This document shows, piece after piece, positions 4,566 through 58,708 of a DNA stretch of 64,000 nucleotides. Position 1 is the first letter of the stretch, and every line of letters starts with the position of its first letter. Under the pieces are notes generated by a model, which saw only the letters and a program-made list of their open reading frames with translations, did no database searches and was not told the DNA's origin. The translations under genes were made by a program, and so were the position numbers. Source of the stretch: Terriglobia bacterium (lineage in GTDB: Bacteria > Acidobacteriota > Terriglobia > 20CM-2-55-15); the NCBI GenBank assembly GCA_965218585.1, contig CBDCLE010000017.1, positions 71,470 through 135,469 of the forward strand. Direction: 5' to 3'.

Positions 4566-6347
4566 CTAGTCACCTTGAACCGTTGCGAGCTCCTGCTCCT
4601 TGTACTGCAACTGATAGAGTTTGAAATACAGTCCTCTCTGGGCGAGAAGTTCCTGATGGGAGCCGATCTCCCGGATCCGTCCCGTGTGCATGACGATAAT
4701 TTTGTCACACCGTTGGATCGTCGACAGCCGGTGCGCGATGATTATCGACGTCCGTCCACGCATCAGTCGTTCGATCGCCCTTCCGATCTGGCCTTCGGTC
4801 TCCGTATCCACGCTTGAGGTCGCCTCGTCCAAAATCAGGATCTCCGGATCGTGTGCGAGGGCACGAGCAAAAGCGAGGAGCTGTCGCTGTCCAACGGATA
4901 AGGTGGTCCCCCGCTCGTTGACGGGGTGTTCCAGGCCCTTTTCAAGTGAACGGATGAAAGGCCCCAGATTCACGTCTTCGGTTGCCTGTCGAATTTTTTC
5001 CGTTGATATGTCGGAACCGAGCCGAATGTTGGACTCCAGAGTTCCGGAAAACACGAATACATCCTGCAATACAACGGCAAACCGACGGCGCATGTCGTCC
5101 AGATCCATAGTTGAAATATCGACACTGTCGAGCAGGATGCGGCCCTTCTGGATATCGTAGAAACGCGTCAGAAGACTGGTCACGGTTGTCTTCCCCGCAC
5201 CCGTGTGGCCGACAATCGCAACGGACTCGCTTTGCCGGACACTGAACGAGAGATCTTTCAGTACCCAATCCTCGTCGTTGTAAGCAAACCAGACATCCTG
5301 AAATTCGATCTCTCCTCGAGCTTCGGCGATCGCGCTTGGTGTGGGAGGAGAAAGAACCGTCGGGGCGGTGTCGAGCAGTCTGAAGATCCGTTCGGAACTG
5401 GCCATGGCCGACTGCAGGATGTTGTATTTTTCACTGAGGTCCGCGATGGGACGAAAAAACCGCTGCGAATACTGAATGAAGGCGATCAGGGCTCCCAGGG
5501 TGAGAATACCGGTCAGGACCTGTCCCCCACCGTACCAGATGATCAGCGCAATCGCTGTCGCGCTCAGAAGTTCGACGATGGGATAGAAGATTGCGTAGGC
5601 CATGATGGAATCGAGGTTCGCCTGCAGGTGCTCACGGTTGATGAGGTCGAACCTCTCGGCGCTCTTGCGCTCACGGTTGTAGAGCTGAACCACGCTCATC
5701 CCCGTAATGTGTTCGTGGAGGAAGGCGTTGATTTTCGCGATCGCGATCCGGACACGGCGGTAACCGTCTCTCGCCTTCATCCGGAAAATTGCAGTGGTCA
5801 CGCCGATAAACGGGACGATTGCCAGGACGATCAGGCCCAGACGCCAGTCCAGAACCAGCAGCACGATCATGATGCCGGTCAGAGTAAATATGTCTCCAAA
5901 AACGGAGACGATACCGGCGGAGAACATTTCATTGAGAACATCGACGTCCGTCGTAACGCGCGTGATAAGGCGCCCGACAGGATTGCGATCGAAGAAGCTG
6001 TTCGAGAGGCTCTGGATGTGGTTGAAGATCTGGCGCCTCATATCGAACATGATTCGCTGTCCCGTACTCTGGAGCGTGTAGGTCTGAAGGAAACCAATGC
6101 CATACTTCACTACGAGCAGACCAAAGTAAGCCGAAGCAATCAGCGAGAGCCCACCCATGTTGCCTTGAAGGATGTAGCGATCCACGGCGATCATCGTCAG
6201 CCACGGAAAACTGATTTCAATCAGCGACTCCACCATGATGAGAAGAAACGCGAACAGCACTATCTTGCGGTACGGCAGAAGGTAGACCATCAGCCGCCGC
6301 ATGAGCCGGGAGTCGTATGCTTTGCCTAGTACTTCTTCTTCCTGCAT
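4566..6347 (-). CDS. ABC transporter permease/ATP-binding protein (type I exporter half-transporter, MsbA/LmrCD-like)
   Basis: Six-TM N-terminal domain, Walker A GHTGAGKTT, signature LSVGQRQLLAFARAL, Walker B ILILDEATSSVD. Confidence 0.9.
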   Translation of the reverse strand: MQEEEVLGKAYDSRLMRRLMVYLLPYRKIVLFAFLLIMVESLIEISFPWLTMIAVDRYILQGNMGGLSLIASAYFGLLVVKYGIGFLQTYTLQSTGQRIMFDMRRQIFNHIQSLSNSFFDRNPVGRLITRVTTDVDVLNEMFSAGIVSVFGDIFTLTGIMIVLLVLDWRLGLIVLAIVPFIGVTTAIFRMKARDGYRRVRIAIAKINAFLHEHITGMSVVQLYNRERKSAERFDLINREHLQANLDSIMAYAIFYPIVELLSATAIALIIWYGGGQVLTGILTLGALIAFIQYSQRFFRPIADLSEKYNILQSAMASSERIFRLLDTAPTVLSPPTPSAIAEARGEIEFQDVWFAYNDEDWVLKDLSFSVRQSESVAIVGHTGAGKTTVTSLLTRFYDIQKGRILLDSVDISTMDLDDMRRRFAVVLQDVFVFSGTLESNIRLGSDISTEKIRQATEDVNLGPFIRSLEKGLEHPVNERGTTLSVGQRQLLAFARALAHDPEILILDEATSSVDTETEGQIGRAIERLMRGRTSIIIAHRLSTIQRCDKIIVMHTGRIREIGSHQELLAQRGLYFKLYQLQYKEQELATVQGD

Positions 6348-6415
6348 CTAACCTGCCGCTCTACTTTCCAGAATAGATCTTGCAATTCCCTGCATCTCAT
6401 CCGCTTCAAGAAACA

Positions 6416-8173
6416 TCATTCCGCTACGTCCAGTTCGTCTTCCAGAAGCTGGCGTTGATGGAGTTCGGCGTACTGCCCTTCAAGCGCCAGCAGTTGATCA
6501 TGAGTACCCCTCTCGACGATCTCCCCGCCGTCGAGAACTACGATTTCGTCCGCACCCTTGACGGTCGATACGCGATGGCTGATCAGGAGTGAAGTCCGGT
6601 CCTGCATCACGGTTCTCAGTTCGTCGAGGATCTGCTCTTCGGTATACGTGTCTACGCTCGACAACGCGTCGTCGAGAATGAGAATCCTGGGGTCTCGAAC
6701 CACGGCCCGGGATATTGCCGTCCGCTGCTTCTGCCCACCAGACAAGGTGATGCCACGTTCACCAACCAAAGTCTCAAAGCGTTTAGGAAACTGGTCTATA
6801 TCCTCGTATATGTTAGATATATGAGCTGCCTTCTCAACCTTAGCCTCAGATACTTCATCCACTCCAAAGGCGATGTTTTCAAAGATTGTCTCGCCGAACA
6901 GGAACGTGTCCTGGGGAATGAAACCGATCGAACGCCGGAGACGCTCGAGGGGAAACCGCTCTATAGGAATCCCGTCGACAAAGATCGACTTTTCGGGCGC
7001 GTTGTACAGGCGCGGGATAAGTTGCGCCAGAGTGGATTTTCCTGCACCTGTCGAACCCACAATCGCCAGCGTCTTGCCCTGGGGAATGGTCAGGGAAACA
7101 TCCCGCAGCACGGGCGTGCCGTTGTAAGCAAAGCTGAGGTTGCGCAGTTCAATTTCTCCCCGGATCTCGTTGTCCACACAGTCGGGCGAGTCTGCGATCT
7201 CGGGAACCGCATCGAGTATGTAGTTCAACCGCCTCATCGACGCCCGACCGCGTTCCAACAGGTTGACCACCCAACCCAACGCGATCATTGGAAAGGCCAG
7301 CATGCCCAGGTATACCGTGAACGCGACGAAGTCTCCCAGGGTGATAATTCCAGAGACGACCTGCCTTCCCCCAAACCAGATGACGGCGACCGTCGCAAAT
7401 CCAATCGTGAACTGCATCGTGGGGTAGAACAGACTGGTCACACGGATCAAATCCATGTTCTTGTCCTGCAAGCTATGGTTCAGCCCGTCGAACTCGGCTT
7501 TCTCGTGCTCCTCCTGCACGAAGACCTTTACGACACGGATCCCGGACAAGCTTTCCTGTACGCGGGCACTGAGGCTGGCCAGGCGCTGCTGCGATTCCTC
7601 GCTCAGGACATGGATGCGCGAACCGAATTGGCGCACACCGTAAGAAATCAGCGGCAGAGGAAGCAACGCCACGAGCGTCAACCTCCAGTCGATACTCAAC
7701 ATCAATCCAATGGCAATCGTCGTGGTGAGGACCGTATTCGCCGTGTACATGATTCCGGGACCGAGCAACATACGCACATTACTCAAATCGTTCGTCGCCC
7801 GCGACATGAGGTCCCCGGTAAAACTTTTCTGGAAGAACGAGAGTTCAAGCTTCTCCATGTGCGCGAACACGTCGCTCCGCAGGTGGTACTCGATCCGGCG
7901 GGAGACCCCGATCATGAGCCACCTCATGAGAAACCGGGAGATACCCTGGAAGACGGTCAGTCCGACGATCAGTCCGGCATACAAGAGGAGCCTGTCGCGG
8001 GTAATCTCCTCGCTGAGGCTGTCGATGCCATACCGGATGACCCAGGGGTTAGCCAGCGAGAAGGCCGACGTGGCGACGACACAGACCAACCCCGCCATCA
8101 TCCTGGACTTATATCTTTTGAGATAAACGATTAACCGGGATAAAGTACTGGTTTGGGACCTTTCGAGGGGCAT
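6416..8173 (-). CDS. ABC transporter permease/ATP-binding protein, partner half-transporter of a heterodimeric exporter
   Basis: Walker A GSTGAGKST, signature LSGGQKQRTAISRAV, Walker B ILILDDALSSVD. It lies 69 nt upstream of the second half-transporter gene on the same strand. Confidence 0.9.
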   Translation of the reverse strand: MPLERSQTSTLSRLIVYLKRYKSRMMAGLVCVVATSAFSLANPWVIRYGIDSLSEEITRDRLLLYAGLIVGLTVFQGISRFLMRWLMIGVSRRIEYHLRSDVFAHMEKLELSFFQKSFTGDLMSRATNDLSNVRMLLGPGIMYTANTVLTTTIAIGLMLSIDWRLTLVALLPLPLISYGVRQFGSRIHVLSEESQQRLASLSARVQESLSGIRVVKVFVQEEHEKAEFDGLNHSLQDKNMDLIRVTSLFYPTMQFTIGFATVAVIWFGGRQVVSGIITLGDFVAFTVYLGMLAFPMIALGWVVNLLERGRASMRRLNYILDAVPEIADSPDCVDNEIRGEIELRNLSFAYNGTPVLRDVSLTIPQGKTLAIVGSTGAGKSTLAQLIPRLYNAPEKSIFVDGIPIERFPLERLRRSIGFIPQDTFLFGETIFENIAFGVDEVSEAKVEKAAHISNIYEDIDQFPKRFETLVGERGITLSGGQKQRTAISRAVVRDPRILILDDALSSVDTYTEEQILDELRTVMQDRTSLLISHRVSTVKGADEIVVLDGGEIVERGTHDQLLALEGQYAELHQRQLLEDELDVAE

Positions 8174-8228
8174 CGGCCTACCATTCTACATTTATTGGAG
8201 TGGGCTTTTAAACCGGGCCCCCGGAAGT

Positions 8229-8256
8229 GGAGTCTAAAGTTATTGTAGGCGTTCCC
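8229..8256 (-). promoter_or_regulatory. candidate ECF-type promoter (GGAAC-N16-GACTC) upstream of the ABC/SDR/rSAM cluster
   Basis: The minus strand reads GGGAAC gcctacaataacttta GACTCC about 55 nt upstream of the ABC start at 8173. This is only a loose match to ECF -35/-10 consensus. Confidence 0.25.
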
Positions 8257-8376
8257 GATGGACGCCTGGAGACAGAACCACTGTCATACCAATAAGTTCG
8301 GGAATGTCGAGCAAGAAGACCATGGATCAGACCGCGATTACTGCCATGCCGGTTTCGACGACGGAAAGGGATGAGG

Positions 8377-9741
8377 GAGGTCGTTCCAATCGGTGTGTAA
8401 AAAGAGAAGGCGGTGTACGCTTTCGGTGAATCCGAAACCCTAAGCAATCCCGGCAGCAACCGGGAGAAAGGTACACCACCCATGAAGAAGAAGAACATAC
8501 CGGCATCAGTGGCGTCAACGAACGCGTATGAAGGTTTGGAGGACTGGGCGCGATCCCGGGTCCAAGTCTGGCTACAGGAGCTGCTCGAGGACGAAGTCAC
8601 TCAATTTCTGGGTCGGGAAAAGTCGGAGCGGAGTCCGAATCGACGAGGATACCGGAACGGTCACGGGAAGCCGCGACGCTTCGCAATGATGAACGGTACG
8701 ATGGAGGTTCGACGACCTCGGGTTCGAAACACCGCCGAGCGGTTCGAGAGTCAGATCCTGCCGTATTTTCGACGGAAATCGAAACAGCTGGGCGAGCTAC
8801 TTCCCGATCTCTACCTCCACGGTCTGGCCACAGGGGACTTCGAGCAGGCCATGCGCGGACTGCTTGGCGCTGGCGCTCCGTTGTCGCGAGCATCGATCCA
8901 ACGACTGAAATCGACCTGGCAGTTGGAGTATGACGAGTGGGTCCAGCAGGACCTGTCCGGCCTCGAGGTCGTGTACCAGTGGGCAGACAGCTTGTACGTG
9001 AAAGCGGGGATCGCGAAAGAGCGAGCGGCATTGCGGGTGATCATCGGAGCCTTGTCAGACGGGCGCAAAGTGGTGTTGGCCTGTGAGAGCGGGCAGCGGG
9101 AAAGCAAGGAGTCCTGGAGCCGCATTCTGCGCAATCTCCAGAGACGGGGCCTGAAGCTGGGACGGCTGACTGTCGCGGACGGTCACCTGGGCATCTGGTC
9201 CGCGCTGGCCGAGCAACAGCCCCAGGGCCAGGAACAACGCTGCTGGAACCACAAGTCGATCAACGTGGTCGATCATCTGCCGAAGACCGAGCAGCCCGCG
9301 GCCAGACAGCTGCTCCATGGGATGGCCTTCGCGAACTCCCGCGCGGCCTGCGAACGAAAGCGGGATCAGTTCGTCCGCCGATATGAGAAGAACTATCCCA
9401 AAGCGGGTGAGACGCTGTTGCGGGACTGGGACCGGATGATTACTTTCTATGAGTTCCCGAAACAACACTGGGTGCATCTGAGAACAACCAACATCGTCGA
9501 ATCGCCTTTCGACATGGTTCGCCTCCGTACCAACGCCGCTCGCCGATTCAAGCGTGTCGAGAATGCAACGGCAATGATCTGGAAGCTACTACGTGTCGCT
9601 GAGAAGGCTTGGCGACACTTAAAAGGATCCGAACTCTTACAAGAGGTCTATGATGGTCAGCAATTCGCTGACGGCATCAGAGTCGTGATGAAATCGAAGG
9701 CCGCCGCCTGATGACTTTTACACACCTTTTGTAATGACCTC
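8377..9741 (+). mobile_element. IS256-family insertion sequence, complete copy (1365 bp) with imperfect terminal IRs and an 8-bp target-site duplication GGATGAGG
   Basis: IRL GAGGTCGTTCCAATCGGTGTGTAAAAAG versus the reverse complement of IRR GAGGTCATTACAAAAGGTGTGTAAAAG (about 22/26 identical). GGATGAGG occurs at 8369-8376 and again at 9742-9749. The element encodes an IS256/mutator-type transposase. Confidence 0.85.
8482..9711 (+). CDS. IS256-family transposase
   Basis: Typical C-terminal IS256 motifs (DRMITFYEFPKQHWVHLRTTNIVESPF). It is about 99% identical to the transposase at 56901..58130. The MKKK start at 8482 is preferred to the upstream extension at 8413. Confidence 0.9.
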   Translation: MKKKNIPASVASTNAYEGLEDWARSRVQVWLQELLEDEVTQFLGREKSERSPNRRGYRNGHGKPRRFAMMNGTMEVRRPRVRNTAERFESQILPYFRRKSKQLGELLPDLYLHGLATGDFEQAMRGLLGAGAPLSRASIQRLKSTWQLEYDEWVQQDLSGLEVVYQWADSLYVKAGIAKERAALRVIIGALSDGRKVVLACESGQRESKESWSRILRNLQRRGLKLGRLTVADGHLGIWSALAEQQPQGQEQRCWNHKSINVVDHLPKTEQPAARQLLHGMAFANSRAACERKRDQFVRRYEKNYPKAGETLLRDWDRMITFYEFPKQHWVHLRTTNIVESPFDMVRLRTNAARRFKRVENATAMIWKLLRVAEKAWRHLKGSELLQEVYDGQQFADGIRVVMKSKAAA

Positions 9742-10284
9742 GGATGAGGACAGAGACCTTGTATCCCGATACCTGTCTGGAGATATGATCGCCTTTGACG
9801 AGTTGATGACCCGCCACGAAAGGCAGATCTACAGACTCTGCTTCCGGTTTGTGAAGAACCCGGAAGACGCCATGGATCTGACTCAGGAAGTCTTCATCAA
9901 GGCCTTTGAGAAACTCACTGCTTTCCGGGGGATGCCCGGTTCAAAACATGGTTGTATCGCGTTGCGGTCAATCATTGCCTGAACCACGTAAAGAAAAACT
10001 CCCGGGAGTTTGTCGAAGTCAACGAAAGTATTGGAAGCGTCGGTCCGTCTTCTCATAACAGACTGCTTGAGAGAGAACGGCGCGATATCGTAAAGCAGCT
10101 CATGGGGAACCTCCCTCCGAAGCAGAAGGCGATTCTCGAGCTGCGAATGAACGACAATCTGAGCTACGAAGAGATTGCAGGCATACTGGGACGATCGGTT
10201 TCGACGGTCAAATCCAGCGTCTTCTTCGCGCTCACCAAGCTCAAGAAGATGGTCGCCCAACAGGCGGCTGCAGGCCAAATGTGA
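9734..10284 (+). pseudogene. ECF sigma factor (sigma-70 family), disrupted
   Basis: Region 2 (DLTQEVFIKAFEKLTAFRG / FKTWLYRVAVNHCLNH) and region 4 (LSYEEIAGILGRSVSTVKSSVFFALTKLK) are recognisable. The native start ATG 8346 plus about 10 codons is separated from the body by the IS256 insertion. In addition, a -1 frame break in a G5 run near 9927-9931 splits regions 2.1/2.2 into the ORFs 9734..9982 and 9952..10284. Confidence 0.8.
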
Positions 10285-10333
10285 TCCAGGCGGTATGAAC
10301 CAAATAGCAGGGCTATAACACTGGCAGATAACA

Positions 10334-10972
10334 ATGCTTAGCTACTTCAAAGGATTCAGGCATCTGAGGGCCAAAGAGTTCATGACCCTTCTCGATGGTC
10401 TCGACCTGGGGGGGGATCGCCGAACCCACCTCCGAGAGTGTGCCAACTGCAGAACGACTCTGGCTTCGATCGCAGAATTGGGGCAGGACATATCGGAATC
10501 CGAGGGCGTGGACGCTGATACCACCCACGCGGCGGTCGCGAATGCGGACTGGGTTCGGCTGCGTTCTTCAGTCAGGGACCGACTGCTTGCACGTGCCGTC
10601 AAGCGTGATTCGGTTCTGCAGCGATGGACAGGGTGGACCGGCCTGCCGACCCCGGTCTGGAGCCTCGCTCTCCTGGCCCTTGTTACCGGGATGGCCGTTG
10701 GTGGATTTTGGCAATATCAGACAGTTCAGCTGACGGATGAAATAACGGAGATTTCGTCGAACGAAGGCGTAAACTTGTCTTCGACCGAGTCCGGCTCCGA
10801 GTTCGGGCTGTTTCCCGGGGACGCCGAAATCATCGAGGCGGAAGCTCTGGCCTGGTCCCAGACCGAGATCTTCACTTCCCTGAACGAACTGGAATCGGGT
10901 GAAGAAGATGTGCTCCGGGAGCTGATTTCCCTGGCTTTTGCCGAAGCTTCGATCTTTGACGAGTCGAGGTAA
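10334..10972 (+). CDS. zinc-binding anti-sigma factor (ZAS-type, single TM)
   Basis: HLRECANCR (HxxxCxxC) motif at the N-terminus, a TM helix VWSLALLALVTGMAVGGFW, and an acidic periplasmic tail. It lies immediately downstream of the ECF sigma gene. Confidence 0.75.
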   Translation: MLSYFKGFRHLRAKEFMTLLDGLDLGGDRRTHLRECANCRTTLASIAELGQDISESEGVDADTTHAAVANADWVRLRSSVRDRLLARAVKRDSVLQRWTGWTGLPTPVWSLALLALVTGMAVGGFWQYQTVQLTDEITEISSNEGVNLSSTESGSEFGLFPGDAEIIEAEALAWSQTEIFTSLNELESGEEDVLRELISLAFAEASIFDESR

Positions 10973-10988
10973 TAGAAGCCGCGCGACA

Positions 10989-11552
10989 ATGAAAGTTCTA
11001 TCCATCGCCATAATGACGCTGACCATGCTCGTCGGGACGGGTCTGTCAGCGCAGTCGTCCCGGGAAGGTCCGGTCATCCTGAAGGTTCGGCCACAGCAAA
11101 GATCCGGACAGGGGAGAAACCTGCGCGCTCCGGATGTCGCATCAATCCAGGAAGTCATTGAGGGTTTCTACGTCAGCCGTTTTCAGATGGAACTGGAACT
11201 GGACGATGAACAGTTCGCGCGGGTGCTTCCGAGGCTGAGAAACTCGCTGAGGGAATGGAATGAGGCAGGACAGAGACATGCTCGAGCGCTCAATCAGCTA
11301 CGACAGGCGATGCGAGCCAATGCTCCTGACGACGAGATTGCCCGGCGAATCGAAGAAATAGACGAAAGCGACATCGCCCTGCGGGCCATCCAGGAAAACC
11401 TGTTGCGTTCGGTCGATCCCGACCTGTCTCCCCGGCAGCGTGCCCGCCTGCGCATCGTCCAGCCCAACCTTGAAGAGCGGATCCGAAATATGATCGAGCG
11501 TTCCCGCGGCCGCCCCCCTCAACCCCCGCGTCCCCCCCAACCTCCTCGATAA
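10989..11552 (+). CDS. secreted/periplasmic hypothetical protein (possible Spy/CpxP-like LTxxQ-type helical protein) with a Pro-rich C-terminus
   Basis: Signal peptide MKVLSIAIMTLTMLVGTGLSAQS, Arg/Glu-rich helical repeats, a PRQRARLRIVQPNLEE motif and a PPQPPRPPQPPR tail. It is the third gene of the sigma/anti-sigma module. Confidence 0.45.
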   Translation: MKVLSIAIMTLTMLVGTGLSAQSSREGPVILKVRPQQRSGQGRNLRAPDVASIQEVIEGFYVSRFQMELELDDEQFARVLPRLRNSLREWNEAGQRHARALNQLRQAMRANAPDDEIARRIEEIDESDIALRAIQENLLRSVDPDLSPRQRARLRIVQPNLEERIRNMIERSRGRPPQPPRPPQPPR

Positions 11553-11719
11553 GAACAAACAGAGAGGCGCAGAGACGCGGAGGTGCAGACTTCTCGCGAA
11601 TCCCTCTGTTCCCACGTTTAAGGTATTCCGATAACTTCCTCGCCACCCCGAACTCGGGATTAGGGACGCGTTGGCCTCCCATTTTTCTCCGCGCCTCTGC
11701 GTTGGCGTCTTTTCTTCCT

Positions 11720-13039
11720 TTAGCCGACCAGGATTATCTGGAGGTCCATCAGGTTGGTTTGTGTGGGGCCGGTCGTGATCAAGTCGCGGACGGACTTCAG
11801 GAAGGTAAACGAATCGTTCGCTCGAAGAAATTTCATTGGCTCGAGGTTCATTTCGATCGCGCGCGAACACGTGAAGGGATCGACCAGGCCTCCAGCGGCG
11901 GTGGTCGGCCCGTCGGTGCCATCGGTCGCAACACTTGCAAAACAGGCCGGTTTCTTCCATGACTGCATCTTCAGAGCCCACGCGAGGGCCATTTCCTGAT
12001 TGCGGCCTCCCTGGCCCGGACCTCTGACAGTCACCGTCGTTTCCCCGGCGGCGAGCACACATGCCGGGGGTGCAACCGGTTGGCCACTCGAACCGATTTC
12101 ACGCGCAATCGACGCAAAAAAACGGCCTACGTCCCGCGCTTCACCCTCGATCTCCGAGCTGAGCACCATGGTCTTGAAGCCCAATTCCTTCGCCCTTTCG
12201 GAAGCCGAGGCCAGCAGAAGACGGTTATCAGCGATGATGTGATTGCTGACACGCTCAAAGAGCACGTCACCCTGCTTGGGGGTTTCTCCGATCTCACCTC
12301 TCCCACCCCGCTCAAAACGATCCTCCACAGCTGACGGAACGGAGATTCCATATTTCCTGACAATTGCGAGCGCGTCAGCAAACGTTGTCGTGTCGGGTGC
12401 AGTTGGACCTGAAGAAATGAAGTCGAGGGGATTGCCGATCACGTCAGACATGATCAGGGACACAACCCGAGCAGGGGCCGCCCACCTCAACAACTGTCCG
12501 CCTTTGATCGAGGAGAGATGCTTTCGAACCGCGTTGAGTTCACGAATCGTGGCTCCTGCCCGAAGCAGGTTGGACGTGACGTGCTGCTTCTCACCCAACG
12601 TGATCCCCTCCGCTGGTGAAGGCAGAAGCGCTGAGCCACCCCCCGAAAACAGGCACAGCACCAGGTCCTCCGAATTCAGGTCACGCAGAAGCTCCCGCAA
12701 TCCCTCGACGGCCAACTCTCCTGAGCGGTCCGGTACCGGATGTCCGGCCTCGAACACTTGAATGCGATCGGTCGGCAGTCGGTGGCCATACTTCGTAATC
12801 ACAAGGCCGGAAGATATCCGGTCGTTAAAGATCCCCTCGACAACCTGGGCCATTCCGGCGCCGGCTTTCCCCGCTCCAACGACGATGAGCCGTCCGGTAA
12901 TCTCAAATTCCTGATCGTCTACGGTGAAACCATTCGGCGTCACGCGGACGGCATTTGGAATGCAGATTTCTGGCCGAGCCGCATCGAGCGCCGACTGCCA
13001 GATCTCCTTGGCCGCTCGACGTAACTGGGAAATCGTCAT
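11720..13039 (-). CDS. glycerate kinase (MOFRL family, glycerate 2-kinase GckA-like)
   Basis: LIVVGAGKAGAGMA N-terminal motif and a MOFRL C-terminal domain. The internal Met MTISQLRRAAKEIW is the likely start. Confidence 0.75.
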   Translation of the reverse strand: MTISQLRRAAKEIWQSALDAARPEICIPNAVRVTPNGFTVDDQEFEITGRLIVVGAGKAGAGMAQVVEGIFNDRISSGLVITKYGHRLPTDRIQVFEAGHPVPDRSGELAVEGLRELLRDLNSEDLVLCLFSGGGSALLPSPAEGITLGEKQHVTSNLLRAGATIRELNAVRKHLSSIKGGQLLRWAAPARVVSLIMSDVIGNPLDFISSGPTAPDTTTFADALAIVRKYGISVPSAVEDRFERGGRGEIGETPKQGDVLFERVSNHIIADNRLLLASASERAKELGFKTMVLSSEIEGEARDVGRFFASIAREIGSSGQPVAPPACVLAAGETTVTVRGPGQGGRNQEMALAWALKMQSWKKPACFASVATDGTDGPTTAAGGLVDPFTCSRAIEMNLEPMKFLRANDSFTFLKSVRDLITTGPTQTNLMDLQIILVG

Positions 13040-13272
13040 ACGAGGCTCTCTTCTATCACGGGGTCCGACCCAACCAAAAACGTTTCCCGTATAGTGGATC
13101 AATCCCGAACAGGTAAACTAGTGATCTGTAGCACCCGTATCGGGCCCAGTGTTGCGGTCAAACGGCATTGGATTCTAGGAGTCACCGACGAGGAAATGCC
13201 CTGCATTGTGAGGAGCTGACGACAACGAAGACGATGCCATTTCGCAGCAATCGCTGGCAGATGGAGAGGCAG

Positions 13273-56381: not shown

Positions 56382-56504
56382 GGGGATCAGAAAAGCGCTG
56401 CGATTCTATCGGAGGGGATTAGCAAGGTCAACGGACACGTGAGACTCCGATTGCTTCCAACTTCTTAGTTCTACTATCATTTGCCAAGAAGGAGGCCGGG
56501 ATCG

Positions 56505-56870
56505 TTGACAGATCGAAAAACCCTCGAATCTCTCGACTTAGAAGAAATCTATGAGACAGCACCCGTGGGCTTGTGCGTCTTTGATACGGACGTTCGGTAC
56601 GTTCGCATCAACCGATACCTGGCAGCGATCAACGGCAAACCGGCTTCCGAACACGTTGGTCGATCGATTGAGGAAATGGCGCCCGAGGTGGCACCCACGG
56701 TGACACCGATGATCAAGAAGGTAATCGACACGGGTGAGCCGGTCTTCAATTGGGAAGTCATCAAACGAACGAACACGGGCGATTCTGAAACAGCTCAAGT
56801 TTTCCTTTGCACTTACCACCCACTCAGGACAGTCGACGGCGAGATAGTTGGCATTTCGTCTGTTGTGCAG
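56505..56870 (+). pseudogene. PAS-domain signalling protein, 3'-truncated by IS256 copy 2
   Basis: PAS fold (APVGLCVFDTDVRYVRINRYLAAINGKPASEHVGRS...). A strong RBS AAGGAGG lies 9 nt before TTG 56505. The ORF runs into the IS end at 56871 and terminates inside the IS. Confidence 0.7.
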
Positions 56871-58147
56871 GAGGTCATTACAAAAGGTGTGTAAAAGTCA
56901 TCAGGCGGCGGCCTTCGATTTCATCACGACTCTGATGCCGTCAGCGAATTGCTGGCCATCATAGACCTCTTGTAAGAGTTCGGATCCTTTTAAGTGTCGC
57001 CAAGCCTTCTCAGCGACACGTAGTAGCTTCCAGATCATTGCCGTTGCATTCTCGACACGCTTGAATCGGCGAGCGGCGTTGGTGCGGAGACGAACCATGT
57101 CGAAGGGCGATTCGACGATGTTGGTCGTTCTCAGATGCACCCAGTGTTGTTTCGGGAACTCATAGAAAGTAATCATCCGGTCCCAGTCCCGCAACAGCGT
57201 CTCACCCGCTTTGGGATAGTTCTTCTCATATCGGCGGACGAACTGATCCCGCTTTCGTTCGCAGGCCGCGCGGGAGTTCGCGAAGGCCATCCCATGAAGC
57301 AGCTGTCTGGCCGCGGGCTGCTCGGTCTTCGGCAGATGATCGACCACGTTGATCGACTTGTGGTTCCAGCAGCGTTGTTCCTGGCCCTGGGGCTGTTGCT
57401 CGGCCAGCGCGGACCAGATGCCCAGGTGACCGTCCGCGACAGTCAGCCGTCCCAGCTTCAGGCCCCGTCTCTGGAGATTGCGCAGAATGCGGCTCCAGGA
57501 CTCCTTGCTTTCCCGCTGCCCGCTCTCACAGGCCAACAGCACTTTGCGCCCGTCTGACAAGGCTCCGATGATCACCAGCAATGCCGCTCGCTCTTTCGCG
57601 ATCCCCGCTTTCACGTACAAGCCGTCTGCCCACTGGTACACGACCTCGAGGCCGGACAGGTCCTGCTGGACCCACTCGTCATACTCCAACTGCCAGGTCG
57701 ATTTCAGTCGTTGGATCGATGCTCGCGACAACGGAGCGCCAGCGCCAAGCAGTCCGCGCATGGCCTGCTCGAAGTCCCCTGTGGCCAGACCGTGGAGGTA
57801 GAGATCGGGAAGTAGCTCGCCCAGCTGTTTCGATTTCCGTCGAAAATACGGCAGGATCTGACTCTCGAACCGCTCGGCGGTGTTTCGAACCCGAGGTCGT
57901 CGAACCTCCATCGTACCGTTCATCATTGCGAAGCGTCGCGGCTTCCCGTGACCGTTCCGGTATCCTCGTCGATTCGGACTCCGCTCCAACTTTTCCCGAC
58001 CCAGAAATTGAGTGACTTCGTCCTCGAGCAGCTCCTGTAGCCAGACTTGGACCCGGGATCGCGCCCAGTCCTCCAAACCTTCATACGCGTTCGTTGACGC
58101 CACTGATGCCGGTATGTCCTTCTTCTTCATGGGTGGTGTACCTTTCT
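56871..58147 (-). mobile_element. IS256-family element, second copy (inverted relative to copy 1), missing about 88 bp of its left end including IRL
   Basis: Right end GAGGTCATTACAAAAGGTGTGTAAAAG is identical to copy 1. Identity to copy 1 stops 20 nt upstream of the transposase ATG (at 58147). No target duplication can be assessed. Confidence 0.8.
56901..58130 (-). CDS. IS256-family transposase (copy 2, ~99% aa identity to 8482..9711)
   Basis: Same protein as copy 1, with about 5 substitutions (e.g. EKSERS>EKLERS, ADSLYVK>ADGLYVK). Confidence 0.9.
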   Translation of the reverse strand: MKKKDIPASVASTNAYEGLEDWARSRVQVWLQELLEDEVTQFLGREKLERSPNRRGYRNGHGKPRRFAMMNGTMEVRRPRVRNTAERFESQILPYFRRKSKQLGELLPDLYLHGLATGDFEQAMRGLLGAGAPLSRASIQRLKSTWQLEYDEWVQQDLSGLEVVYQWADGLYVKAGIAKERAALLVIIGALSDGRKVLLACESGQRESKESWSRILRNLQRRGLKLGRLTVADGHLGIWSALAEQQPQGQEQRCWNHKSINVVDHLPKTEQPAARQLLHGMAFANSRAACERKRDQFVRRYEKNYPKAGETLLRDWDRMITFYEFPKQHWVHLRTTNIVESPFDMVRLRTNAARRFKRVENATAMIWKLLRVAEKAWRHLKGSELLQEVYDGQQFADGIRVVMKSKAAA

Positions 58148-58708
58148 TGCCCGCAACCAATCGATAACGAAAGGATCCCCGGACCCGGGCGGCAAGATGT
58201 CGCTGGTGCTGTCAATCCTGCTGTTTCCGGCAAAGAACATCAGCTTGTTGGGCTGAGTGCTGGTTGGCAAAGGCGCAAACCACTGGTCACAAACGGCGAA
58301 CTCGTTTGCCAGAAACGTTGTGATGGGCACGGCGCCCGGCCGTTGGAATCCCATCACTTCGGGTTCGGTCGGGTCAGGGATCTCGAAGCCTCTCTCTTGG
58401 GCATACTCGAAGTACGAACGGGCAAAGCCGTTCATACTGTGACCGTTGCCGCTTTTCGCAAGCTGGACGGCGATTCTCTCCCGTGCGTGTGGCGCATCGC
58501 CCGGCAACCACTTGTCTCCTGCTTCGAAGGGAAAGAACGACTTGCTGCCAAACCGATTCTCGTAGTCGGAGCGCTCAAGCGGGCGATGCAATCCGTTGAC
58601 GTCCCTGCCGAGGTCGTAGCTGAGGTGTCCCAGCATGTGGTCGAAGGAGCGGTCTTCGAACATCAGATAGACGATCGTGTCAACGAGTCTGGGGTCTGTC
58701 ATGAGCAC
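58148..58708 (-). pseudogene. phosphoesterase family protein (PlcC/AcpA-type phospholipase C/acid phosphatase) N-terminal fragment, 3'-truncated at the IS copy 2 boundary
   Basis: N-terminal motif TIVYLMFEDRSFDHMLGHL is typical of Pfam phosphoesterase (PF04185). Only about 185 aa remain before the IS sequence, whereas full-length members are 500-700 aa. Confidence 0.65.

Follow-up and report, generated by a model that had tools for sequence, protein, structure and literature searches.

What has become of an ECF sigma factor gene in an uncultured Terriglobia lineage (Acidobacteriota) that carries an insertion sequence (IS) near its 5' end: has the gene been rewired or has it been lost? We addressed this question in one window, by which we mean the whole 64-kb stretch of DNA analysed. 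The reading that we favour, with a probability of about 0.85, is that an IS256-family insertion in codon 19 together with a –1 frameshift in a run of G has given a recently formed sigma pseudogene, an allele fixed in this lineage. The overall interpretation of an earlier note on this DNA is supported by our analysis, with the changes described below.

The interrupted sigma gene and its operon

The IS interrupts an ECF sigma factor gene of 196 codons that is conserved across Terriglobia and belongs to a conserved unit of a sigma gene, a putative anti-sigma gene and a gene for a 187-aa protein. Its parts and its neighbours lie as follows.

8274–8300, plus strand: candidate ECF-type promoter of the sigma gene (AGAAC-N17-GTTCG), tentatively assigned
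8322–8376, plus strand: 5' stump of the sigma gene (MDQTAITAMPVSTTERDE), codons 1–18 and the first base of codon 19
9750–10284, plus strand: rest of the sigma gene, from the remainder of codon 19 to the stop, in two reading frames
10334–10972, plus strand: putative membrane anti-sigma factor, with H-x3-C-x2-C and one hydrophobic segment in its translation
10989–11552, plus strand: third gene of the unit, 187 aa, syntenic in related loci, possibly CpxP/Spy-like (weak evidence)

The N-terminus MxxTATTIMP is conserved among orthologues, and the DNA alignment there varies at synonymous third positions. The conserved start codon is ATG 8322 (MDQTAITAMPV...), which places the IS in codon 19 of 196. 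The earlier note had started the gene at ATG 8346 and put the IS after about codon 10; the reading frame that it proposed upstream of the IS is conserved in homologues and reaches eight codons further, to ATG 8322, so the frame stands and the start and codon number do not. In a tblastn search with an intact orthologue, residues 1–18 align at 8322–8375 with 100% identity, residues 17–79 in frame 2 (9743–9931) and residues 76–196 in frame 1 (9919–10281). Deleting the IS and one repeat copy in silico gives ...MPVSTTERDEDRDLVSRYLSGDM..., as in intact orthologues such as P0001, in agreement with the earlier proposal that reading across the repeat restores the sigma N-terminus.

The window's gene matches the ECF profile only after removal of the IS and restoration of one G. 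Repaired in this way, the protein is 96–97% identical to intact orthologues over its full length, matches the Pfam families Sigma70_r2, Sigma70_r4_2 and Sigma70_ECF, as does P0001, and scores 115 bits against TIGR02937 (cutoff 42.9). It reaches the cutoff of none of the named NCBIfam equivalogs (RpoE, SigW, SigM and others), and we therefore assign it to an unclassified Terriglobia-specific ECF group. The locus resembles RpoE/SigW/SigM-type modules, which pair an ECF (group IV) sigma factor with a co-transcribed membrane anti-sigma factor of the zinc-binding type, in that the sigma factor has no domains other than sigma-2 and sigma-4, the downstream gene encodes H-x3-C-x2-C and a transmembrane segment, and a GGAAC-N17-GTT-like motif lies upstream; unlike in those modules, the sigma gene is disrupted in this lineage. 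Relative to the nearest intact orthologue (L004) we counted 26 synonymous and 5 non-synonymous codon differences, indicating that the inactivation is recent relative to lineage divergence. These differences, together with the perfect duplication described below, bear out the earlier description of the event as recent.

In 16 related loci the anti-sigma candidate gene directly follows the sigma gene. Its product has no Pfam match and reaches the NCBIfam anti-sigma profile only at E = 0.0015 (18.6 bits, cutoff 100), and the 187-aa protein matches Pfam Metal_resist below cutoff (E = 0.0038). Exact look-up of the anti-sigma, ABC and 187-aa proteins led to only one near-identical contig, ERZ25067264, in which the IS is present; the same look-up of the 585-aa ABC ORF gave no identical record. 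By a polar or read-through effect, the IS might act on the anti-sigma and 187-aa genes. Upstream of the start codon, the GAAC and GTTCG blocks are kept in most orthologous loci, and the IS now cuts the candidate promoter off from most of the sigma gene. Within the window the motif GAAC-N16-18-GTTCG is not enriched (4 occurrences, 3.7 expected), and no regulon can therefore be inferred from it.

The insertion element and its target site

The element, its ends, the flanking repeats and a second copy are these.

8369–8376, no strand: target-site duplication GGATGAGG, left copy, abutting the left tip of the IS
8377–9741, plus strand: IS256-family insertion sequence, 1,365 bp, in the orientation of the sigma gene
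8377–8402, plus strand: left terminal inverted repeat (GAGGTCGTTCCAATCGGTGTGTAAAA), with a subterminal TGTAAA motif
8482–9711, plus strand: transposase gene, intact, 409 aa, the sole ORF of the IS
9716–9741, plus strand: right terminal inverted repeat, including an outward TTTACA (9717–9722) and an in-frame ATG (9734)
9742–9749, no strand: target-site duplication GGATGAGG, right copy, abutting the right tip of the IS
56871–58147, minus strand: second copy of the IS, 99.1% identical, truncated by 88 bp at its start, so that the left inverted repeat is missing

The longest inverted repeat within 8200–9900 pairs 8377–8402 with 9716–9741 (26 nt, 85% complementary). Its arms touch both 8-mers with zero gap, which sets the size of the element at the 1,365 bp given in the earlier note, and both arms contain TGTAAA, a conserved subterminal motif at IS256-family ends (PMC7780238). 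The family assignment made earlier from the letters holds: the transposase matches Pfam PF00872 (Transposase_mut) with E = 6.7e-60 (203.4 bits, cutoff 21) and NCBIfam NF033543 (transpos_IS256) with 272.1 bits (cutoff 150). A phmmer comparison with the ISCth4 transposase (6xg8) gives E = 3.6e-28 over residues 19–354. The putative catalytic residues of the transposase in the window are D169, D233 and E340, accompanied by C254-x2-H257; in ISCth4, D175, D241 and E348 are catalytic and the pair is C262/H265 (PMC7780238). In the alignment to 6xg8, D233, E340 and C254/H257 line up with the ISCth4 motifs caDa, tiEs and RCivH, and D169 (WADSLYVK) was placed by motif, the HMMER alignment being shifted by 2 residues there. 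The element thus combines a match to a curated family profile, a DDE triad with the C/DxxH motif of the alpha-helical insertion domain, a compact size within the family range of about 1.2–1.5 kb, most of it taken up by one ORF, imperfect repeats and a target duplication of 8 bp, the family producing 8–9 bp.

Like IS256 of Staphylococcus and Enterococcus and ISCth4 of Clostridium thermocellum (PDB 6XG8), it encodes a single Mutator-type DDE transposase, belongs to the size class of about 1.3–1.5 kb and has imperfect repeats with TGTAAA and an 8-bp target duplication (PMC7780238). The CxxH motif is common to this transposase and that of ISCth4. However, the similarity to ISCth4 is distant, the host is an uncultured acidobacterium, and the TTTACA –35-like hexamer lies 20–25 bp from the tip here and 6–11 bp from it in ISCth4. 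By analogy with the family, transposition would be copy-out/paste-in via a circular intermediate, and the IRR-IRL junction of the circle would read ...TGTAATGACCTC-N-GAGGTCGTTCC.... The IS is multi-copy and common, as seen from the second, 99.1% identical copy in the window and from the 286 member sequences in the 90%-identity cluster of its transposase; IS256-family copies in the window number three in all. Exact protein look-up of the window's transposase found no identical record. The IS is probably active and probably as yet unnamed.

As a word, GGATGAGG is not rare in the window, with 7 occurrences against 3.35 expected. The chance of identical 8-mers exactly at both IS tips is about 4^-8, or 1.5e-5. 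What decides the matter is the empty site: the IS is missing as a single block from three syntenic relatives (L004, L087 and L088), all metagenome contigs with 92–95% nucleotide identity. In L004, window positions 6353–8376 align to 6031–8055 and window positions 9742–13245 to 8048–11532, so that both aligned blocks overlap on one GGATGAGG; the 8-bp overlap is identical in L087 and L088. The empty site carries a single GGATGAGG in L004 and L087 and the variant GGATGAGGG once in L088. Because these three IS-free relatives carry the site once, and none carries both copies, the 8-bp duplication is a real target-site duplication; the perfect 8-bp repeat at 8369–8376 and 9742–9749 reported in the earlier note is confirmed by its coordinates, by its abutment on the IS and by the empty sites.

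The multi-copy nature of the IS, the source of the sequence in a metagenome assembly and the frequency of the 8-mer in the window could all be taken to mean that the IS was misassembled at a repeat and that the flanking 8-mers match by chance. We regard this as highly improbable: three assemblies, each from a different sample, share the same junctions, duplication and flanks; the 8-mers sit directly against the tips of the inverted repeats and are single in the empty sites; and a chance match at both tips has the low probability given above. On the reading that we favour, an IS256-family element of 1,365 bp transposed into codon 19 of the sigma gene, and staggered integration would have duplicated the 8-bp target GGATGAGG; 1,373 bp now separate the promoter region and codons 1–18 from the remainder of the gene. 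We found no empty allele of the same lineage at >99% identity, and the insertion is therefore not closely datable.

The G run and the reading frame downstream of the element

Two features decide what the downstream part of the gene can encode.

9734–9982, plus strand: 82-aa chimeric ORF, with Met-Thr-Ser from the IS end, sigma residues 17–76, an out-of-frame tail and a stop
9927–9931, plus strand: run of five G (G5), which shifts the sigma reading frame by –1 at about codon 77; six G (G6) in intact relatives

The earlier note had overlooked the change from G6 to G5 at 9927–9931. The intact relatives L004, L087 and L088 have G6, and G5 is found in the window and also in L001–L003 and L006. This frameshift is a second lesion of the gene, and any order of the two lesions would be an inference. 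The IS, the duplication and the G5 run all recur in ERZ25067264 and ERZ25072670, giving three assemblies with that of the window; the presence of both lesions in two more, independent assemblies makes it probable that they are real and fixed. Of the 12 other genes in the 16-kb neighbourhood, 11 are collinear with L004 in a single frame and the twelfth has a block deletion of about 272 bp with no homopolymer slip, which argues that the window consensus is not generally error-ridden. The data are metagenome assemblies, some at 2–4x coverage according to their contig names, and a 4x contig splits several neighbouring genes, raising the idea that the frameshift is a low-coverage error. We set this aside as less likely: the window is 99.95% identical to the 4x contig, yet the split genes are intact in it, and G5 is found in all assemblies. 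A small chance is left that the G run is miscalled systematically as a homopolymer; with a true G6, the sigma-2 and sigma-4 domains would both still be encoded in full 3' of the IS.

The ATG at 9734 lies within the terminal repeat of the IS and is in frame, as claimed in the earlier note. The ORF that it initiates is only 82 aa long because of the –1 frameshift, and an identical 82-aa product is called on contigs of two other assemblies. It stops short of the end of region 2 and includes nothing of region 4. The downstream fragment does begin at ATG 9734, but the frameshift makes it an 82-aa stump and not a usable sigma factor. With the frameshift on top of the IS insertion, this is most probably an ordinary dead gene, and sigma function would, from the sequence, have been lost.

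IS256-family ends can carry half-promoters (PMC7780238), and staphylococci and enterococci offer examples of IS256-mediated gene inactivation and promoter rewiring, one of them upstream of walKR (PMC6702299). The present locus is like the staphylococcal and enterococcal cases in that an IS256-family element in or beside a regulatory gene may sever it from its own promoter (PMC6702299). It differs from them in the position of the IS within the coding sequence, in having no outward promoter that could be detected and in the additional, independent frameshift of the target gene; what results here is a pseudogene and not overexpression. A promoter and terminator scan of 8100–10400 found no plus-strand promoter-like site in the IS or at its end, and no Shine-Dalgarno-like sequence precedes ATG 9734. 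By eye, the best hybrid promoter candidate was TTTACA-N17-TCGGAT, a weak one whose –10 hexamer matches at 3 of 6 positions and which would initiate transcription 3' of ATG 9734. Joining the two IS ends gave no convincing –35/–10 pair by eye; no complementary –10 was seen, and a junction or hybrid promoter is therefore not evident. The hint in the earlier note of IS-driven expression or fusion is unsupported, since the right end shows no detectable sigma-70-like outward or hybrid promoter and the ORF is an 82-aa stump, and the matter is probably moot.

Rewiring would require the G5 run to be a consensus error or to be bypassed, so that a near-full-length sigma factor is made from ATG 9734 or from Met31 (ATG 9785). 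The IS would then take away only a poorly conserved 18-residue N-terminal tail, and transcription through transposase read-through or a weak hybrid promoter would uncouple the sigma factor from autoregulation. Several observations are compatible with this. ATG 9734 is in frame; the Sigma70_r2 match begins at residue 29 of the 188-aa reconstruction from Met9, which is full-length residue 37, so the sigma domains lie 3' of the insertion; no plus-strand terminator-like site was found between the transposase stop and the sigma fragment; the right inverted repeat has its outward TTTACA, half-promoters being known at such ends (PMC7780238); and coverage is low in some assemblies. We nevertheless consider rewiring unlikely. 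G5 is identical in three separate assemblies as against G6 in the three nearest relatives, and no other gene of the 16-kb neighbourhood has a homopolymer frameshift relative to L004; nor is a sigma-70-like promoter predicted at or near the right end, where the hybrid candidate is weak and would start transcription 3' of ATG 9734, an ATG that no Shine-Dalgarno-like sequence precedes. It is likewise unlikely that, where the frameshift is absent, the IS-supplied ATG and transposase read-through yield a deregulated, truncated sigma factor.

Insertions in related operons and significance of the probable pseudogene

Mobile elements have entered the orthologous operon elsewhere. In L008 the 3' end of the sigma gene contains an IS256-family IS other than the present one, in L027 an IS1-like/ParA element of 3.3 kb lies within the sigma gene, and in L016 two DDE_Tnp_1 elements lie within or beyond the anti-sigma gene. 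In L089 there is a breakpoint about 20 nt from the insertion site of this IS, and the 104 nt of unrelated DNA at its start had no match among the sequences gathered for this analysis. These independent events could mean that inactivation of the ECF module is adaptive and recurrent in soil Terriglobia, the IS studied here being one of several parallel knock-outs and not a neutral accident. However, the genomes are generally IS-rich, as seen in the three IS256-family copies of the 64-kb window, one of which sits in the neighbouring ABC gene in L088, and 13 of the 18 orthologous loci are intact and conserved. A rough count gives 4 insertions in about 33 kb of operon as against a single one in the roughly 60 kb of ABC genes (binomial p ~0.06, not significant), a comparison confounded in that the sigma module is likely to be the more dispensable. 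We therefore hold an adaptive explanation to be doubtful, and it seems similarly improbable that the operon, in which at least four lineages (this one, L008, L027 and L016) carry independent insertions of different elements, is a recurrent mobile-element target because of repeated selection to switch off or rewire a stress regulon and not because of neutral IS load. If the recurrent insertions were non-random, they would suggest that regulation has been lost in parallel in a phylum about which little is known, but the present evidence does not establish non-randomness.

Beyond annotation the importance of the sigma pseudogene is very little: the sigma-like ORFs at 9734–9982 and 9952–10284 should be annotated as one pseudogene and not as genes. 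What is gained is a cleanly delimited IS256-family element of uncultured Terriglobia for which both ends, the target duplication and three empty sites are described, and the case illustrates that these long-read soil acidobacterial genomes contain several, probably active, IS256-family elements.

Ends and empty sites of the insertion sequence

The insertion sequence (IS) in the ECF sigma gene (ATG 8322 to 10284) is bounded by the longest inverted repeat within 8200-9900, 26 nt with 85% complementarity. Because its outer ends abut two copies of the 8-mer GGATGAGG (8369-8376 and 9742-9749) with zero gap, the element is exactly 1,365 bp (8377-9741, + strand).

Terminal inverted repeats of the IS
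8377-8402, left terminal inverted repeat, GAGGTCGTTCCAATCGGTGTGTAAAA
9716-9741, right terminal inverted repeat, TTTTACACACCTTTTGTAATGACCTC

The 8-mer is commoner than expected in the 64-kb window (7 copies observed, 3.35 expected), so its frequency is no proof of duplication; identical 8-mers exactly at both tips of the IS have a chance of about 4^-8 (1.5e-5). We reconstructed the sigma protein by removing the IS and one repeat copy and repairing a frameshift, and a search with this query returned four intact homologues (P0001-P0004; 194-202 aa, 96-97% identity, full length) and an N-terminally truncated one (P0005, 166 aa).

Related metagenome contigs encoding intact homologues
L004, encodes P0001, ERZ25074053
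L087, encodes P0002, ERZ26167216
L088, encodes P0003, ERZ21829562

These three contigs have the gene order of the window (two opposite-strand ABC transporter genes, sigma, putative anti-sigma, a 187-aa gene and a MOFRL gene) at 92-95% DNA identity. On each of them the window flanks (left to 8376, right from 9742) overlap by 8 bp (8048-8055 in L004), and the overlap holds a single copy of GGATGAGG in L004 and L087 and one copy of a variant, GGATGAGGG, in L088. The earlier note had proposed a perfect 8-bp target-site duplication, to be doubted if IS-free relatives also had both copies; the copies at both tips and the single copy at each empty site bear the proposal out, and the duplication arose through insertion of the IS.

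The sole ORF of the IS (8482-9711, + strand) encodes a 409-aa transposase that matches Pfam Transposase_mut (PF00872, E = 6.7e-60) and scores above the cutoff of the curated NCBIfam IS256-family model NF033543 (272.1 bits vs 150). The element also resembles the family in size, single ORF, imperfect inverted repeats and 8-bp duplication, all consistent with the assignment first made from the sequence. The only relative with a solved structure is the IS256-family ISCth4 transposase (6xg8; E = 3.6e-28), in which the corresponding residues are D175/D241/E348 and C262/H265 (PMC7780238). D233 (the second aspartate), E340 and the CxxH motif (C254/H257) align with these catalytic positions, and the putative first aspartate, D169, is placed by the motif WADSLYVK. 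Subterminal TGTAAA, a hallmark of the family (PMC7780238), is present in both inverted repeats. By analogy, the element, which is probably unnamed, would transpose by copy-out/paste-in. Two substitutions, G170S (8989), adjoining the putative catalytic D169, and L185R (9035), occur only in this copy; G and L are kept in L001, which carries the same insertion in another assembly, and in the second copy in the window. They reflect either a consensus difference or a very recent change.

The interrupted gene and its operon

Intact orthologues contain Sigma70_r2 and Sigma70_r4_2 and no other domains. They exceed the ECF superfamily cutoff (TIGR02937, 115 bits vs 42.9), and none reaches the cutoff of a named NCBIfam equivalog. 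Their N-termini (MDQTAITAMPV or MxxTATTIMP) correspond to ATG 8322, eight codons upstream of the ATG 8346 proposed earlier, and the DNA alignment of orthologues has third-position synonymous changes in the added codons. The proposed frame is thus conserved in homologues, with a corrected start, and the IS interrupts codon 19 of 196 behind its first base rather than following codon ~10; the duplicated 8 bp span parts of codons R16, D17, E18 and D19.

A genome scan located the gene in uncultured members of the Terriglobia (Acidobacteriota), among Solibacteraceae-like MAGs, and the synteny of divergent ABC genes, sigma gene and genes for 212-aa and 187-aa proteins recurs at 16 further loci with sigma identity down to 56%. 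The 212-aa protein has an H-x3-C-x2-C motif and a hydrophobic segment, which make it a putative zinc-binding-type anti-sigma; its match to an anti-sigma profile is sub-threshold. Upstream of the sigma gene, AGAAC-N17-GTTCG (8274-8300) is partly conserved among orthologues and resembles ECF autoregulated promoters. The motif is not enriched in the window, so we list it only as a candidate promoter. An intergenic block at 8184-8215 (CATTCTACATTTATT ... CTTTTAAACC) is near-invariant at every orthologous locus examined. Its - strand contains a promoter-like site, TTTAAA-N18-TAGAAT, which would probably serve the divergent ABC transporter operon.

A frameshift downstream of the insertion

The earlier note placed the start of the downstream sigma fragment at ATG 9734, inside the IS. 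An ORF does begin there, and it stops at 9982 after only 82 aa, the remainder of sigma lying in another frame (ORF 9952-10284), because the run at 9927-9931 has five G; this frameshift had been missed. The corresponding run has six G in L004, L087 and L088 (TTC CGG GGG GAT), and tblastn with an intact orthologue places residues 1-18, 17-79 and 76-196 in three different frames or places of the window.

A sequencing error is disfavoured by the five-G run in other assemblies and by the intact, collinear neighbouring genes. The IS, the duplication and the G5 run are common to the window, a contig of ERZ25067264 and a third contig from ERZ25072670, and the 82-aa product, which requires both lesions, is on record from several assemblies. 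The window is 99.95% identical to, and distinct from, a 4x contig, and neighbouring genes split in that contig are whole in the window. Of the 12 other genes in the 16-kb neighbourhood, 11 align collinearly with L004 in a single frame, and the twelfth has a ~272-bp block deletion relative to L004 and no homopolymer slip. We regard the frameshift as very probably real. The ~272 bp, missing at window ~2522-2535 within a ~508-aa gene, are present in L004 and in a near-identical contig (L002 13568-13839), and the gap reflects either a genuine deletion variant or a difference in assembly.

The IS cuts off only the 18-residue N-terminal tail, and the Sigma70_r2 match begins beyond the insertion, near residue 37 in full-length numbering, so the IS alone need not have killed the sigma protein. 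A near-full-length sigma factor might then still be expressed downstream of the IS, uncoupled from its autoregulation. However, no sigma-70-like promoter is predicted within the IS or at its right end. The outward TTTACA at 9717-9722 is paired only with a 3/6 -10 hexamer (TCGGAT) whose start would fall downstream of ATG 9734, and this ATG has no preceding Shine-Dalgarno-like sequence. We therefore consider such rewiring improbable. Given the frameshift, what remains downstream is missing region 4 entirely as well as the end of region 2, and it cannot serve as a functional sigma factor. No + strand terminator-like site was found between the transposase gene and the sigma stump, and read-through into the putative anti-sigma gene may thus occur.

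The repaired sigma gene differs from that of L004 by 26 synonymous and 5 conservative non-synonymous codon differences, which indicates that purifying selection acted through most of the divergence of the two lineages and that inactivation is recent on that scale. Together with the perfect duplication, this agrees with the recent event proposed from the sequence. The inactivation is nonetheless not so recent as to be confined to one assembly: three share it.

Mobile elements in the window and in sister operons

Further IS256-family elements in the window
56871-58147, - strand, second copy of the 1,365-bp IS (99.1% identity), 409-aa transposase ORF intact
61998-63383, - strand, third, different element, 1,386 bp, transposase 35% identical to the first

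The IS is multi-copy, and 286 sequences belong to its transposase cluster at 90% identity. The second copy, whose first 88 bp are missing together with the left inverted repeat they contain, is neighboured by a truncated Phosphoesterase-family gene (58127-58708, - strand) and a truncated PAS-domain gene (56481-56894, + strand); this arrangement suggests deletion or rearrangement at the IS, or an assembly join. The third element, whose transposase ORF has 430 aa from a TTG start or ~415 aa from an ATG, is flanked on each side by one copy of a perfect 9-bp direct repeat, GACGTCAGT. Its relative (88% DNA identity) lies in an ABC transporter gene of L088, where the flanks overlap by 8 bp at the equivalent of window 7899-7906.

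Other mobile elements have independently disrupted this operon in sister Terriglobia. A distinct IS256-family IS lies within the sigma gene's 3' end in L008 (6578-8000), and in L027 the sigma gene contains a 3.3-kb element (6415-9722) that has inverted repeats of 25 nt and encodes an IS1-like transposase and a ParA-like ATPase. Two DDE_Tnp_1 (IS1182-like) elements lie in or after the anti-sigma gene of L016 (~6600-10900). The first 104 nt of L089 (1-104), up to its contig end, are unrelated DNA; sigma homology begins only after them, at the counterpart of window 9762, a breakpoint ~20 nt from the insertion site in the window. The counts suggest that the operon is hit more often than the neighbouring ABC genes (binomial p ~0.06, a rough count that is not significant and is confounded by dispensability).

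On our reading, insertion of the IS in codon 19 and the G5 frameshift would together have made the sigma gene a pseudogene, recently on the scale of the lineage split. The observation and core interpretation of the earlier note were right, apart from the start codon and the overlooked frameshift: this is an ordinary recent IS256-family insertion, and the ECF sigma gene, disrupted twice, is now a pseudogene of an uncultured acidobacterium rich in IS elements.
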